In this document: positions 1,176-12,136 of the stretch, in pieces
Layout of the letters: every line of letters starts with the position of its first letter
How positions within the stretch are numbered: position 1 is the stretch's first letter
Source: a virus
Virus record (IMG/VR): IMGVR_UViG_3300032249_000542
Span: 32,001-96,000 of that record
Length of the DNA: 64,000 nt
Reading direction: 5' to 3' (one strand)
Program-made: the position numbers and the translations under genes
Notes under the pieces: model-generated
The model's database searches: none
Told to the model about the DNA's origin: nothing
The model's input: only the letters and a program-made list of their open reading frames with translations

Positions 1176-2116
1176 AAACAGCATTGATTACTGGTGTATC
1201 GGGTTATCTCGGTTCGCACGTTGCAAAAGAATTGAAGAAGGCAGGATGGAAAGTTATTGGGTTAGATATAGTTCATACAATTAATCCTTACATCGATATT
1301 TTTTACTTGTGTAATATATCGGATGCTGTCTCGCTAGATGAATTGTTCAGTAGGGTAAAAATCGACACAGTTTTTCACTTTGCAGGATTGATTGAAGTTG
1401 GTAGTTCAGTTAAAAATCCTGCTGGGTATTGGAAAACAAATGCCGGTGGAACAATCAATCTTTTAGATATTATGAAACGTCATAAAGTAGAAAATATTCT
1501 TTATTCATCTACTGCTGGGTTGTATGAAACAAATAGTATTTTGCTTAATGAAGAATGTCCTCTCAATCCAGACAACAATCCATACGCAGGAAGTAAGTAT
1601 GTAGCAGAAATTGCGATTAAACAGTCGGGATTGAATTATCAGATTTTTAGATACTTCAATTTAGCAGGTGCTGATCCTGACGGTGAGTTTGGTGAGAATC
1701 ATTTTCCTGAAACACACTTGATTCCACGAATCTTTGAAAATCTAAATAACTTCACAATTTATGGCAATGACTATGATACAGTAGATGGCACTTGTGTTAG
1801 GGATTATGTTCACGTATCCGATGTTGCCGAAGCACATGTATTGGCTGCAAACAATTTAAATAACCTCACAATCAATCTAGGTACCGGAGTAGGATACTCG
1901 GTAAAAGAGATAGTCAACTTGGTAGAATTTGTAACGGGTAACAGAGTTAATTTCACTTTCGGTGAAAGACGAGGTGGTGACCCATCACAACTAGTTGCCG
2001 ATATCACTCTTGCCAAAGAGTGCTTGCACTACCGTCCCAAACATAGTATAGTTTCTATTATTGACACAGCATATAAATGGCATTCACAAAATGAAAAAAG
2101 AACCGATACAGTTTGA
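1172..2116 (+). CDS. galE: UDP-glucose 4-epimerase
   Basis: TGVSGYLGSH Rossmann motif, HFAG, YAGSK (YxxxK), FRYFNLAGA, DGTCVRDYVHV. Confidence 0.92.
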   Translation: MKTALITGVSGYLGSHVAKELKKAGWKVIGLDIVHTINPYIDIFYLCNISDAVSLDELFSRVKIDTVFHFAGLIEVGSSVKNPAGYWKTNAGGTINLLDIMKRHKVENILYSSTAGLYETNSILLNEECPLNPDNNPYAGSKYVAEIAIKQSGLNYQIFRYFNLAGADPDGEFGENHFPETHLIPRIFENLNNFTIYGNDYDTVDGTCVRDYVHVSDVAEAHVLAANNLNNLTINLGTGVGYSVKEIVNLVEFVTGNRVNFTFGERRGGDPSQLVADITLAKECLHYRPKHSIVSIIDTAYKWHSQNEKRTDTV

Positions 2117-2615
2117 ATCTAATCACTTCCTTACTGGTGATATTAATAACGAAAATATAGAATCTGCAATGAAGTGGGTAGTCGATGCAAATGAAAAAAA
2201 AGTTCCAAGTATAATATCATTATATATTAATTCAGATGGTGGTGATCTGGCAGGTGCTTTTGCATTAATTGACGTTATGCGTGTATCCGCAGTTCCCGTT
2301 TCAACTATTGGTATTGGGAATATAATGAGTTCTGCTTTTATGATATTTGCTTCTGGAACAAAAGGACATCGTGCAATATCAAAAAACACTAGCATAATGA
2401 TGCACCAATTTCATCATGACTTTGGTGGCAAGTATCATGACATAAAAGCATTCTCACAAGAATTTGATCGTATTAATCAAAGAATGCTTAATACGCTTAT
2501 TGATTGTAGTGGTATGTCAGAAGATGATGTAAGGAAGTATCTACTTGGACCAACTGATTCTTGGATTGATGCGTATCAGTTGAAAGAGTATGGAATTGCT
2601 GACTATATTTTTTAA
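2091..2615 (+). CDS. clpP: ATP-dependent Clp protease proteolytic subunit-like protein
   Basis: LYINSDGG, IMSSA (catalytic Ser position), IMMHQ (His), D..IDA...KEYGIAD. ATG 2091 preferred as start. Confidence 0.85.
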   Translation: MKKEPIQFESNHFLTGDINNENIESAMKWVVDANEKKVPSIISLYINSDGGDLAGAFALIDVMRVSAVPVSTIGIGNIMSSAFMIFASGTKGHRAISKNTSIMMHQFHHDFGGKYHDIKAFSQEFDRINQRMLNTLIDCSGMSEDDVRKYLLGPTDSWIDAYQLKEYGIADYIF

Positions 2616-4445: not shown

Positions 4446-5195
4446 ATGAAATTACTATCTACTGGTAACCCCAAGACCCTTAAAGGTTTGGCAACAGGTT
4501 ACAATACCTACATTTTACACCTTGCACCTGCAAACCTTTCGGGTTTTGAGACTTGTCCAAAACGCACCGAAGGTTGTACTGCTGCTTGCTTGAATACAGC
4601 AGGTCGTGGCGGTATGTTCAAAAAAGGTGAAACAACCAATGTGATCCAAAAGGCACGAATTCGTAAAACCCGCATGTTCTTTGAGGACCGTGTTTCCTTT
4701 ATGAATTTGTTGGTCAAAGATATTGAGTTAGCAATTAAACAATCTGCTAAACTTAATTTAACTCCTGTATTCCGTTTGAACGGTACCTCCGATATCGCTT
4801 TCGAAAAATACGAGGTTCTCCGTAACGGTCAATCATACACAAATATTTTCTTTGCTTTCCCAGAAGTGATTTTTTACGATTACACCAAAATCCTTGGTCG
4901 TAAAATAAGTTTCATTCCTAACTATTCGTTGACATTCTCTGCTGCTGACGGCAATGATGCTGACGTACAAAAAGCAATAGCACAAGGTTACAATGTTGCT
5001 ACAGTTTTCGGTTTAAAGAAAACAGAAGCAATGCCTGAAACTTATCTTGGTCGTCCAGTATTTAACGGTGACGAATCCGACTTGCGTTTCCTAGATCCTA
5101 AAGGTGTTGTTGTTGGTTTGTATGCAAAAGGTCGTGCGAAAAAAGACACTTCAGGTTTTGTGAAATTTCCTACAATTATGTTGAAGGCTGCTTAA
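4446..5195 (+). CDS. GP88-like Cys-cluster (possibly radical-SAM-like) phage protein
   Basis: CPKRTEGCTAAC, FRLNGTSDI, FYDYTK, NGDESDLRF. AAGGA RBS before ATG 4446. Confidence 0.65.
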   Translation: MKLLSTGNPKTLKGLATGYNTYILHLAPANLSGFETCPKRTEGCTAACLNTAGRGGMFKKGETTNVIQKARIRKTRMFFEDRVSFMNLLVKDIELAIKQSAKLNLTPVFRLNGTSDIAFEKYEVLRNGQSYTNIFFAFPEVIFYDYTKILGRKISFIPNYSLTFSAADGNDADVQKAIAQGYNVATVFGLKKTEAMPETYLGRPVFNGDESDLRFLDPKGVVVGLYAKGRAKKDTSGFVKFPTIMLKAA

Positions 5196-7833: not shown

Positions 7834-8156
7834 TGAAATATTATGATGAAATGATGGCGTTGGAAACTAAGTTGATTGAAATGGAAACCGCACTTGCAGG
7901 GTTTCGTGGTTTTGTTAATGGTGCTGTGCAATTAGATCAGGAATGTTTGCAAAATGCGCTTTACTTTTTCGATGAATCCCTGCATAATATACATGGTGCT
8001 TGCAATTCTAAGTGGACTGAATTGTGGTCAGCAATAGGAAGTGATGTTACCCCTACTCTGCAACCAGTTCTTCCAGGAGGAGGTGGTGGTGGACATGACT
8101 ATGGTGCCGTTGGTATGGAAAAGAAACGTAGAGTTACCGATAAAACTTTAGACTAA
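7833..8156 (+). CDS. Hypothetical protein
   Basis: TAATG coupling to the previous stop; GGAG upstream. Confidence 0.6.
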   Translation: MKYYDEMMALETKLIEMETALAGFRGFVNGAVQLDQECLQNALYFFDESLHNIHGACNSKWTELWSAIGSDVTPTLQPVLPGGGGGGHDYGAVGMEKKRRVTDKTLD

Positions 8157-9565: not shown

Positions 9566-10327
9566 ATGGCACGTAAAGCGGCACTAAAACAGGTTTACAG
9601 TAGTGAAGAATCGTTGGACTTTTCAAAACCAACTAATCGTTTGAAGTTAAGATTAGATGATATGAAAACATTCCAACCACTAACTGAGAACCAGAATAAA
9701 TTTTTTCAAGCATATAAACAAGGAGATTACTTTATAGCATTACATGGTGTTGCTGGAACAGGTAAAACATTTTCAGCATTATATAAAGCCATCGAAGAAG
9801 TGTTGGATAAAAGTAACAATTTTGAGAAAATTATTGTCGTGCGCTCCGCAGTACAATCAAGGGAAATAGGTCATCTACCTGGTAGCGTAGATGAGAAGAT
9901 GGAAATCTATCAGCAACCATATCGTCAAATATGCGAAACACTTTTTGGTCGCAAAGATGCATGGGATAGATTAGAAGAACAAGGTCACATTGAATTCATT
10001 TCAACATCATTCATTCGTGGTATGTCATTTGACAATGCAATTATTATTGTTGACGAAATGCAGAATATGACCTTTGAAGAAATTGATACGGTAATGACTA
10101 GGGTAGGTAATCAATCAAAGATTATCTGGTGTGGTGATTACAGACAGACTGATTTGAACAAAAAGAAAAACGATGTCTCAGGTTTATTGAAATTCTTTGA
10201 TATTGCATACCACATGGATGCATTCACTAGAATCGAATTTACACCAGATGATATTGTCCGTTCAAGTTTGGTCAAAGACTATATTTTAGCAAAATTGAAG
10301 TTTGAGGATCTTTCAGAAAAGACATAA
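9566..10327 (+). CDS. phoH: PhoH-family ATPase
   Basis: GVAGTGKT, IGHLPG, RGMSF, IIVDEMQN, GDYRQTDL. Confidence 0.93.
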   Translation: MARKAALKQVYSSEESLDFSKPTNRLKLRLDDMKTFQPLTENQNKFFQAYKQGDYFIALHGVAGTGKTFSALYKAIEEVLDKSNNFEKIIVVRSAVQSREIGHLPGSVDEKMEIYQQPYRQICETLFGRKDAWDRLEEQGHIEFISTSFIRGMSFDNAIIIVDEMQNMTFEEIDTVMTRVGNQSKIIWCGDYRQTDLNKKKNDVSGLLKFFDIAYHMDAFTRIEFTPDDIVRSSLVKDYILAKLKFEDLSEKT

Positions 10328-11010
10328 TGAAAATATTTAATCATGTTACTGTAGACGGTTTAGGATATAAACTTAAACAGATTAATGAATCAACGGGTAG
10401 ACGGTATCAAACACCAGAAGGAAACCTCTACCCGTCAATAACTACAGTTTTAAGTAGTTATAATAAACAAGGGTTGATGGAATGGCGTGCTAGAGTTGGT
10501 GCTGAAGAAGCGAACAGGATATCAACCAAGGCATCCAATCGTGGAACTAAGGTACATGATACAATAGAAAAATATCTATTGAATGATTTGAGTGACATGA
10601 AACTCAATTCATTGATGCCTGACATAAAAGAAATGTTCATCAAGATTCGTCCTTACTTGGATAAACACGTTGGGATGATTTATGGAATAGAACAACCTTT
10701 GTATAGTGATGCATTGAAAATTTCTGGTACATGTGATTGCATTGGCGAATGGGATGGTGTGTTATCTATCATCGATTGGAAAACATCAAATTATCAGAAA
10801 GAAGAAAGTTATATCGGAAACTATTTTATGCAAACTTCGGCGTATGCTGAAATGTTTGAAGAAAGAACAGGTATATCGATTAATCAAGTGGTAGTTGCAA
10901 TAGCGGTAGAGAATGAGGAACCTCAGATATTCATAAAGAAAAAGAATGATTATCTAGAGGAATTGAAACGGTACATTGATAAATATCACTTGACTAATCA
11001 AGCAAGTTGA
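10327..11010 (+). CDS. PD-(D/E)XK (Cas4/RecB-like) exonuclease
   Basis: YPSITTVL, RGTKVH, GTCDC, IIDWKTS, YFMQTSAYA. Confidence 0.85.
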   Translation: MKIFNHVTVDGLGYKLKQINESTGRRYQTPEGNLYPSITTVLSSYNKQGLMEWRARVGAEEANRISTKASNRGTKVHDTIEKYLLNDLSDMKLNSLMPDIKEMFIKIRPYLDKHVGMIYGIEQPLYSDALKISGTCDCIGEWDGVLSIIDWKTSNYQKEESYIGNYFMQTSAYAEMFEERTGISINQVVVAIAVENEEPQIFIKKKNDYLEELKRYIDKYHLTNQAS

Positions 11011-11018
11011 TATATAAT
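10978..11018 (+). promoter_or_regulatory. Candidate promoters upstream of the tmRNA locus
   Basis: Late-type GATAAATA 10978-10985; TTGACT 10990-10995, 17 bp spacer, TATAAT 11013-11018. Confidence 0.6.
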
Positions 11019-11040: not shown

Positions 11041-11169
11041 ATGAATGAAGAAAAGAAAGAACGTGACTATAGCAAGATGACCAAGGGCGATTACTATTGG
11101 GATAAGTTTATGAGTGTTATGTGGTTATTATTCATTGTCTCAATCGTCTCTGGTGGCTTCTATAGGTAA
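11041..11169 (+). CDS. Small membrane peptide (42 aa)
   Basis: GGAG RBS; MNEEKKERDYSKMTKGDYYWDKFMSVMWLLFIVSIVSGGFYR. Confidence 0.55.
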   Translation: MNEEKKERDYSKMTKGDYYWDKFMSVMWLLFIVSIVSGGFYR

Positions 11170-11170
11170 A

Positions 11171-11437
11171 GAATTGTTGTAACCCCTTCAAAGCGAAGGC
11201 ATGTTGGACGAGGGTTCGATTCCCTCCATCTCCACCAGAAGCATATTGTGTAGTGTGTTTCTGATGGGGATGACCTGGTTTCGACAGCGTGAGATAGTGG
11301 AGACGGCAACACGGTAGGCGATGACCGTTAATCAAGCAAAACTACAAATGCAAATGACGCATTTTATGGTGAAGATCGCCTAGCAGCGTAACTCACTTGG
11401 GGTTTCGGGAGTGTCCTTATTAACCAATCACTCCCAC
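11171..11437 (+). ncRNA. ssrA: Circularly permuted two-piece tmRNA
   Basis: The acceptor piece has the T-arm GAGGG-TTCGATT-CCCTC and ends CATCTCC-ACCA at 11237. An intervening hairpin follows. The coding piece starts GGGGATG at 11266 (7-bp acceptor stem with G3.U), has a GACCTGGTTTCGAC D-loop analogue and a tag ORF at 11350-11391 (ANDAFYGEDRLAA*). Outer ends are approximate. Confidence 0.9.
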
Positions 11438-11452
11438 CAAATTCTATATATT

Positions 11453-12136
11453 ATGAAAATCTATAAATCAAATTATCGTAATCATTGGGTTTCTCCATAC
11501 GTTATACTGGAGAAGGTTTTCTTTTGGCGTGAAATTGATTACGATGAACCACTTATCAAAAAACTTTCCGATTTTCTCGATCCGTTTTCCGTAGCATGGC
11601 TAAAGTTTCTTGACTTTGTACATCCACGTATCAACTATGTGAAGATTGACCGTTATGATACATGGTCAATGGATTCTACATTAGCTGATATCATTCTACC
11701 GATGCTGAAGCAGATGAAAGCAACAAAGCATGGTTCACCAACGGTTGATGATGATGATTTGCCAGAAGAACTGCGTGTTGTTGCACACAAAGATTGGTCG
11801 CAACAACTTGCATTTGAATTTGATGACCATGAACAATACGAAAAGGATTCGTGGGATTTGCAACATCGTCGTTGGGAATGGGTTCTCGATGAGATGATTT
11901 TTGCCTTTGAACACTATGTTGATGATACATGGGAAGAAGCATTCCGTTCAGGTGAACATGATATGATACATGTGCCATGCGAATGGTATGAAGATGGCAG
12001 ACCCAAACTTTACTCAATTGAAAAAGGACCGAACGATACCTACGTATGCGACTATGAAGGTATGAATAAAGTATACAAACGAATGGAGAATGGATTCTGT
12101 TTGTTTGGTAAGTATTACAGAGGACTGTGGGACTAA
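11453..12136 (+). CDS. Conserved phage hypothetical protein
   Basis: YVKIDRYDTWSMDSTLA, W.WVLDEMIFAF, GFCLFGKYYRGLWD; ATG 11453. Confidence 0.7.
   Translation: MKIYKSNYRNHWVSPYVILEKVFFWREIDYDEPLIKKLSDFLDPFSVAWLKFLDFVHPRINYVKIDRYDTWSMDSTLADIILPMLKQMKATKHGSPTVDDDDLPEELRVVAHKDWSQQLAFEFDDHEQYEKDSWDLQHRRWEWVLDEMIFAFEHYVDDTWEEAFRSGEHDMIHVPCEWYEDGRPKLYSIEKGPNDTYVCDYEGMNKVYKRMENGFCLFGKYYRGLWD

Follow-up and report, generated by a model that had tools for sequence, protein, structure and literature searches.

We identified a beta-type permuted two-piece tmRNA gene in a viral genome from IMG/VR. The stretch of DNA that we analyzed (the window) is 64,000 nucleotides long and corresponds to bases 32001-96000 of a 169,777-bp virus record. 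The gene matches the Rfam covariance model beta_tmRNA (RF01850) over its full length, with 158 bits (E = 9e-49; the cut-off is 84 bits). It also has a full-length match to tmRNA_permuted (RF04321), with 154.9 bits (E = 7e-31; cut-off 47). ARAGORN also called a permuted tmRNA, both in the window (11145-11482) and in the genome as a whole, and its tag reads ANDAFYGEDRLAA. When we searched for the permuted arrangement with a strict pattern, there was one match in the window and none in 100 shuffled sequences. The match to the permuted tmRNA family is far beyond chance. We think it very likely that this is a working tmRNA gene of a lytic, T4-like freshwater phage.

A sequence-only reading of the window had proposed a phage-encoded, permuted two-piece tmRNA with its own tag. 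The covariance models, the covariation within the helices, and the selection on the tag all agree with this core proposal. The checks that it had suggested, with the Rfam models and with ARAGORN, were positive for RF01850, RF04321, and ARAGORN alike. It had named only bacterial lineages as known carriers of permuted tmRNAs. The identification stands, but phage two-piece tmRNAs were already in the literature: Buchholz et al. (2022) described the two-piece tmRNA of the T4-like phage Melnitz, which lies behind an early promoter (PMC9004378). In that study, 402 of 18,146 phage genomes had a tmRNA, corresponding to 133 unique forms; 53 of the 133 were two-piece, and 50 of those 53 came from aquatic phages (PMC9004378). 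Permuted tmRNAs were present in 17 of 47 Melnitz-like contigs (PMC9004378), and the 2025 tmRNA database includes 79 phage sequences (PMC11915505). Because two-piece tmRNAs of phages have been published and are common in aquatic phages, the category is known, and the novelty that the sequence-only reading implied is not upheld. Our locus repeats the finding of Buchholz et al. (PMC9004378), and it adds a beta-type member, from a little-studied freshwater branch of T4-like phages, to this category. We confirmed permuted tmRNAs in the phages Melnitz, Mosig, and HTVC008M, and in Stenotrophomonas phage DLP6.

The order of the parts is permuted: the T-arm, the 3' strand of the acceptor stem, and the CCA (which ends at 11237) are encoded upstream of the 5' strand of the acceptor stem (which starts at 11266). 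As judged by the Rfam match, the gene is complete and is not a fragment. On re-reading the sequence, we found that the positions originally given for the T-arm, the acceptor strands, the CCA, the spacer, and the tag were each correct, and ARAGORN reads the tag in the same frame, as ANDAFYGEDRLAA followed by a stop codon. The features are listed in Table 1.

Table 1. The tmRNA gene and nearby or related features, with positions in the window.
Feature	Position	Strand	Basis
ClpP-family peptidase gene	2061..2615	+	PF00574, 102.5 bits, full domain
PD-(D/E)XK exonuclease gene	10327..11010	+	Pfam PF12705, phrog_298
Predicted sigma-70-like promoter, TTGACT-17-TATAAT, 11/12 matches to the consensus	10990..11018	+	Consensus scan
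42-codon ORF; N-terminus charged, C-terminal helix hydrophobic	11041..11169	+	Conserved in relative L112
Acceptor piece, about 63 nt (inferred size)	11175..11237	+	Rfam alignments, ARAGORN 3' tRNA domain, covariation counts
Distal P2 strand UGUUG	11175-11179	+	Within the acceptor piece
P2a strand CAUGUUG	11200-11206	+	Within the acceptor piece
T-arm GAGGG/TTCGATT/CCCTC	11210-11226	+	Within the acceptor piece; contains GGUUCGAnUCC, as read from the sequence
Acceptor 3' strand CATCTCC	11227-11233	+	Within the acceptor piece
Discriminator A11234, then the encoded CCA	11234; 11235-11237	+	Within the acceptor piece
Intervening segment, 28 nt, predicted to be removed on maturation	11238..11265	+	Fold and covarying stem columns
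5' part of the coding piece, including the resume region	11266..11349	+	Rfam alignments, covariation
Acceptor 5' strand GGGGAUG	11266-11272	+	Pairs with CATCTCC, 7 bp including G3:U
Conserved D-loop analogue UGGUUUCGAC	within 11266..11349	+	Rfam alignments
P2a strand CAGCGUG	11285-11291	+	Within the coding piece
Distal P2 strand CAACA	11307-11311	+	Within the coding piece
First pseudoknot hairpin CGGU/ACCG	11312-11315 with 11324-11327	+	Within the coding piece
Tag frame encoding ANDAFYGEDRLAA, from the GCA resume codon (11350) to TAA (11389-11391)	11350..11391	+	ARAGORN
3' part of the coding piece	11399..11439	+	Rfam beta model hairpin, pairing counts in relatives
Terminal hairpin GGGAGUG/CACUCCC, then ACCA (11436-11439)	11407-11413 with 11429-11435	+	Rfam beta model

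A pattern scan of IMG/VR identified 22 viral contigs with permuted tmRNAs, and bacterial genomes yielded 25 more. We mapped the Rfam-derived structure onto an alignment of 18 beta-type sequences and counted the base pairs. The 7-bp acceptor stem that had been read from the sequence, with its G3:U pair, is present throughout: 100% of the cells are paired and G3:U is invariant. The discriminator A73, which along with G3:U is an identity element for alanine, is also invariant. The T-arm is 100% paired as well, and both sides of the pair have changed in three of its five pairs. The proposed pairing of CATGTTG with CAGCGTG corresponds to helix P2a, which is 98.4% paired, with changes on both sides in 5 of 7 pairs. 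For the distal part of P2, 88.6% of the cells are paired (both sides changed in 4 of 5 pairs), and for the first pseudoknot, where the count covers just the hairpin part, 84.7% are paired (4 of 4 pairs changed on both sides). Overall, the covariation score was 0.43; shuffled alignments scored 0.16, and no slid control exceeded 0.12.

The other long-range contact of the sequence-only reading, between AACCCC (11181-11186) and GGGGTT (11399-11404), was not confirmed in that form. Of the cells that contain letters, 76.9% are paired, but about a third of all its cells are gaps, and the pairing is lost where a relative has no C-rich motif. In the relatives, 90.5% of cells show GGGG (11399-11402) paired with CCUU (11415-11418), which lies in the loop of the next hairpin downstream. 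GGGG and CCUU probably form a local pseudoknot with this hairpin (11407-11413/11429-11435). Because GGGG is better paired with the downstream loop than with AACCCC, we predict that it is the acceptor stem and P2 that keep the two pieces joined, just as they do in the two-piece tmRNAs of bacteria. For the 3' hairpin itself, 51% of the cells are paired, which is an underestimate because several rows of the MAFFT alignment are out of register; compensatory changes in the stem can be seen by eye.

The last hairpin (11407-11439, + strand) has a 7-bp stem that is followed directly by ACCA, so that it resembles the minihelix of a tRNA acceptor. This ACCA is kept in the phage relatives L009, L112, L019/L023, and L015, and is not found in the bacterial copies that we examined. 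The ACCA-ended hairpin may be a signal for the processing or the protection of the 3' end.

The spacer between the two pieces, together with C11236 and A11237, folds as a 12-bp hairpin with GUGU as its loop. The predicted energy is -13.3 kcal/mol (z = -4.8), none of 200 shuffles was as good, and the stem columns covary in the relatives. This bears out the proposal of a hairpin that is formed by the 28-nt spacer and starts inside the CCA. Among the phage relatives, the spacer ranges from 19 to 177 nt, so 28 nt is at the short, empty end of the range. The spacer is also the most length-variable part of the gene: in relative L112, which is about 93% identical, it is 70 nt (about 4910-4980), and phages that are further removed have up to 177 nt at this locus.

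The tag begins with ANDAFY and ends with LAA, and it has 13 residues, versus 10 in the nearest bacterial tmRNAs. We found five distinct relatives with ANDAFY tags. At residues that are unchanged, these have 10 synonymous codon differences from our copy, and the only tag positions at which the amino acids differ are 7, 9, and 10 (GEDR, GEMR, and EEFA). In other words, the N-terminal ANDAFY and the C-terminal LAA are fixed, and the four-residue middle is variable. Since the codons of the tag vary synonymously, the tag is under selection as a peptide. We did not find an ANDAFY-tagged tmRNA in 185,579 bacterial species genomes, using a tmRNA-anchored pattern that would miss variant D-loop analogues such as the one in L112. 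The ssrA tags of E. coli have two parts, which are an N-terminal adaptor part (N-D-x-x-Y) and a C-terminal protease part (LAA). By analogy, the fixed ends of our tag would match this two-part logic.

The virus record has direct terminal repeats and is rated as complete. The sequence-only reading had described a lytic, T4-like phage, and the genome agrees: T4-type baseplate and tail proteins are encoded within the window, a T4 gp21-type prohead protease is encoded at 118104-118583 of the full genome, and there is no integrase in the phage genome. The genome is 36.8% G+C, and its 25 tRNA genes form a single array. Among cultured phages, Methylophilales phage Melnitz and the Pelagibacter myophages are the nearest, at only about 38% identity in gp6. 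Neither psbA nor CsgG, nor any curli gene, is present in the phage genome, which rules out cyanophage-type or Melnitz-type content.

The window does not encode SmpB, as had been noted from the sequence. We extended the search to the complete 169.8-kb genome, as had also been suggested, and found no match to SmpB (PF01668) there either. Because the phage lacks SmpB, the function of its tmRNA would depend on compatibility with the SmpB of the host. Other published phage tmRNAs likewise need SmpB from the host (PMC9004378).

The genes upstream of the tmRNA encode PhoH and the PD-(D/E)XK exonuclease, and those downstream encode a protein of unknown function, a cell-wall hydrolase, and the gp59 helicase loader (all from Pfam or PHROG). 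The predicted promoter lies at the end of the exonuclease gene, and both of its hexamers are conserved in L112, which is a close relative. It is the likely start of a transcript that contains the small ORF of 42 codons and the tmRNA precursor. The stop codon of this ORF precedes the tmRNA by 5 nt. The precursor of the tmRNA thus seems to make up the 3' portion of a small mRNA, and the ORF is probably co-transcribed with the tmRNA. Since an ORF, and not a dedicated promoter, is directly upstream, the 5' end of the acceptor piece should require a further cleavage. A scan 3' of the gene found no terminator-like site. The ORF ends with G-x-[FH]-Y-x-[RN], it has no match in Pfam or PHROG, and it is conserved in L112 (about 4720-4850) with synonymous changes. 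In L009, a similarly-built ORF of 43 amino acids (8017-8148) ends at the start of the tmRNA.

Close by, there are two auxiliary genes that are typical of aquatic T4-like phages: a heme oxygenase (PF01126; 8685-9227, + strand), just upstream of the tmRNA region, and phoH (9566-10327, + strand), just upstream of the exonuclease. The genome lacks psbA, though.

A search of IMG/VR with the exonuclease identified 51 loci, of which 44 were informative (at least 2.5 kb of downstream sequence). A permuted tmRNA directly follows the homologous exonuclease gene in 38 of these 44 viral loci. Phages whose exonucleases are 57-91% identical to ours have beta-like tags, while those at 42-48% identity have alpha-like tags such as ANDNIAPMALAA, and many of the relatives at this locus carry ordinary 10-residue tags. 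Melnitz, which has an alpha-type tmRNA, is also syntenic at this slot. Because the synteny extends across phages with beta-like and with alpha-like tags, the slot is old in this clade of phages.

As for the origin of the RNA, its scaffold is closer to bacterial beta-type tmRNAs (50-82% similarity) than to alpha-type tmRNAs (36-61%) in every 30-nt window. The tag region alone is equally distant from both. We considered a chimera with a beta-type scaffold and an alpha-type tag, and we rejected it, as the scaffold is closer to the beta type everywhere and the tag region is no closer to one type than to the other. In a maximum-likelihood tree, from an alignment with about 230 alignable columns, a supported clade (96/95) contains this RNA, eight other viral RNAs, and three bacterial ones (G070, G250, and G400). 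Over about 155 nt, identity to the best matches from bacteria is only 75-77%. We did not find a standard tmRNA in any of these three bacterial genomes, which implies that the permuted gene is native to them. And because the permuted tmRNA is their sole tmRNA, this type of RNA should work with an ordinary SmpB.

Given these results, we propose the following mechanism. Transcription would begin at the sigma-70-like promoter and would proceed through the 42-codon ORF into the tmRNA precursor. The tRNA-processing enzymes of the host would cut the precursor, with RNase P cleaving at G11266 and with 3' trimming to the encoded CCA at 11237, and the 28-nt hairpin spacer would be discarded. In the mature RNA, the acceptor piece would be about 63 nt long and the coding piece about 172 nt, and the 7-bp acceptor stem and the long P2 would join the two. 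The host's alanyl-tRNA synthetase would recognize G3:U and A73 and charge the RNA, and SmpB and EF-Tu from the host would bring it to ribosomes that have stalled on broken or stop-less mRNAs. Translation would then resume at the GCA at 11350 and append ANDAFYGEDRLAA, and the C-terminal LAA would direct the product to ClpXP-type proteolysis. The benefit to the phage would be more free ribosomes, and the clearance of truncated proteins, while the host's mRNAs are being destroyed.

The sequence-only reading had suggested that the phage's RNA substitutes for a host tmRNA that is destroyed by defence nucleases, or else that it redirects proteolysis; as statements of purpose, both are speculation. 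Buchholz et al. proposed that phage tmRNAs maintain the translation machinery or that they tag proteins for recycling (PMC9004378). If our mechanism is correct, then phage-borne tmRNAs would be one way in which large lytic phages invest in free ribosomes during infection. We know of no experimental demonstration of the role of any phage-borne tmRNA. Several properties make this clean and compact locus a convenient candidate for a first functional test: its predicted promoter is of the early type, its spacer is short, its tag is clearly under selection, the phage genome is complete, and relatives are plentiful. The conserved exonuclease-tmRNA arrangement and the phage-specific tag supply concrete hypotheses for such a test.

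The main alternative is that the same RNA mostly re-routes proteolysis and that ribosome rescue is secondary. A tag-and-destroy branch would then consist of the 13-residue tag, which is specific to the phage, and the ClpP that the phage encodes; it might be used, for instance, to recycle host proteins or to compensate for an attack on the host's tmRNA. The extra length of the tag relative to the 10-residue tags of the nearest bacterial tmRNAs, its absence from the bacterial genomes that we scanned, and its pattern of fixed ends around a variable middle would all fit this explanation. So would the ClpP, which the phage encodes besides its gp21-type head protease. When it is aligned with a solved ClpP, the phage protein's Ser, His, and Asp fall on the catalytic triad. 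The protein is nearer to the models for true ClpP than to those for ClpP-related head proteases, yet it falls below all of the NCBIfam cut-offs. ClpP-family genes are also present in 5 of 10 other phage records with tmRNAs, counting two weak matches of 58 bits. But Melnitz, HTVC008M, Mosig, and DLP6 have tmRNAs and no ClpP, so ClpP and tmRNA are not an obligate pair. In our phage, the two genes are 9 kb apart. A Walker-A scan of the phage gave four candidates and no ClpX-like ATPase: the one candidate with a fitting size and motif position is a MoxR/CbbQ-type ATPase, and we judged the other three by their motif and length. Furthermore, the tag still ends with the canonical LAA, and the ordinary 10-residue tags of many relatives at the same locus do not suggest a specialized branch. 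Overall, we consider it unlikely that re-routing is the main role. It is possible that ClpP is a partner in degrading the tagged proteins, and the data allow such a pairing but do not demand it. A bolder form of this idea, which we think is probably wrong, makes the tmRNA half of a tag-and-destroy pathway that is run by the phage: the phage may supply an early-expressed tmRNA and a ClpP that is catalytically intact (as judged by its triad), with SmpB and the unfoldase coming from the host, and the lineage-specific tag may comprise an adaptor-like ANDAFY, a variable linker of four residues, and LAA. In a wider version, which we hold to be just as doubtful, the exonuclease-tmRNA slot may go back to the ancestor of a large clade of aquatic T4-like phages, and alpha-like and beta-like tmRNAs may have been swapped in place as the hosts changed.

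Two other explanations compete with the proposal of a working tmRNA. The RNA could be a decoy that titrates the host's SmpB and thereby blocks the host's trans-translation. This has been proposed for the RNA of mycobacteriophage DS6A, which has just the tRNA-like domain, and a similar molecule inhibits tmRNA (PMC4131195, PMC11915505). A phage that lacks its own SmpB is compatible with this explanation, but the gene has kept the hairpin of the first pseudoknot, the resume codon, and an intact tag frame, none of which a decoy would require. The selection on the tag peptide (at 9 of its 13 positions, the only changes are synonymous) argues against a mere decoy, as does the invariance of the alanine identity elements, and we view this explanation as very improbable. 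Or, the gene might be a passenger that plays no part in infection, being either a host tmRNA gene that was captured recently or what is left of an integration site. Integration often takes place at tmRNA genes, pieces of which are found in prophages (PMC9004378), and our RNA does cluster with bacterial beta-type tmRNAs. However, the gene is complete, the phage has no integrase, and purifying selection acts on the structure and the tag alike in this lineage of phages. Also, the exonuclease-tmRNA arrangement is found in 38 of 44 phage loci even though the exonucleases are just 42-91% identical. The synteny and the selection largely refute the passenger explanation, and we give it almost no credence.

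Among known systems, the closest in setting are Melnitz, Mosig, and HTVC008M, which are also lytic, T4-like aquatic phages that have a permuted tmRNA and lack SmpB. The Melnitz-type phages share the early-type promoter and the slot downstream of a homologous exonuclease gene. However, the RNAs of these three phages score best with the alpha model (68-107 bits), whereas ours is beta-type (158 bits), and the tags of Melnitz-type phages differ from ours. In Melnitz, the 3' end of the tmRNA gene carries a glutamine riboswitch (RF01739), while no riboswitch of any kind scores above threshold in our window. Finally, our phage has 25 tRNAs and ClpP and has no curli genes, unlike the Melnitz-type phages.

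The bacterial beta-type tmRNA (RF01850) has the same architecture as our RNA and the same conserved hairpin loop after the tag; this type of tmRNA is attributed to Sharkady and Williams (2004; cited in PMC9004378). Our RNA differs from the bacterial ones in being borne by a virus, in having a tag of 13 rather than 10 residues, and in having an ORF, and no dedicated promoter, immediately upstream. It also lacks the second 3' hairpin of the Rfam beta model. More distant are the one-piece tmRNAs of the large Bxz1-group mycobacteriophages and the RNA of DS6A, which are likewise carried by phages that lack SmpB (PMC4131195). The Bxz1-group tmRNAs have the standard gene order, the DS6A RNA lacks a tag frame, and the hosts are Actinobacteria (PMC4131195).

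Some bacteria have both a one-piece tmRNA and a beta-type permuted tmRNA: these include Gallionellaceae G001, G342, G004 (Stenotrophomonas), and G005 (Herbaspirillum). In the Gallionellaceae genome (L059/G001), the two tmRNAs (796-1165 and 1448-1779) are in tandem, about 280 bp apart. The permuted copies from Stenotrophomonas and Herbaspirillum have unusually long tags or tags that do not end with LAA. Phage hallmark genes are absent from the flanks of these copies, and for the Stenotrophomonas copies, a prophage origin is not supported.

Another phage, the cultured Stenotrophomonas phage vB_SmaS-DLP_6 (KU682439.2, 168 kb), likewise has a beta-type permuted tmRNA with a 13-residue tag. Its tag is ANDDSFAPMAIAA, its genomic context differs from that of our phage, and its RNA is on another branch of the tree, together with the chromosomal copies from Stenotrophomonas. 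The DLP_6 tmRNA, at 102838-103059, adjoins tRNA genes and is unannotated in KU682439.2; it scores 136.8 bits with RF04321 and 103.7 bits with RF01850.
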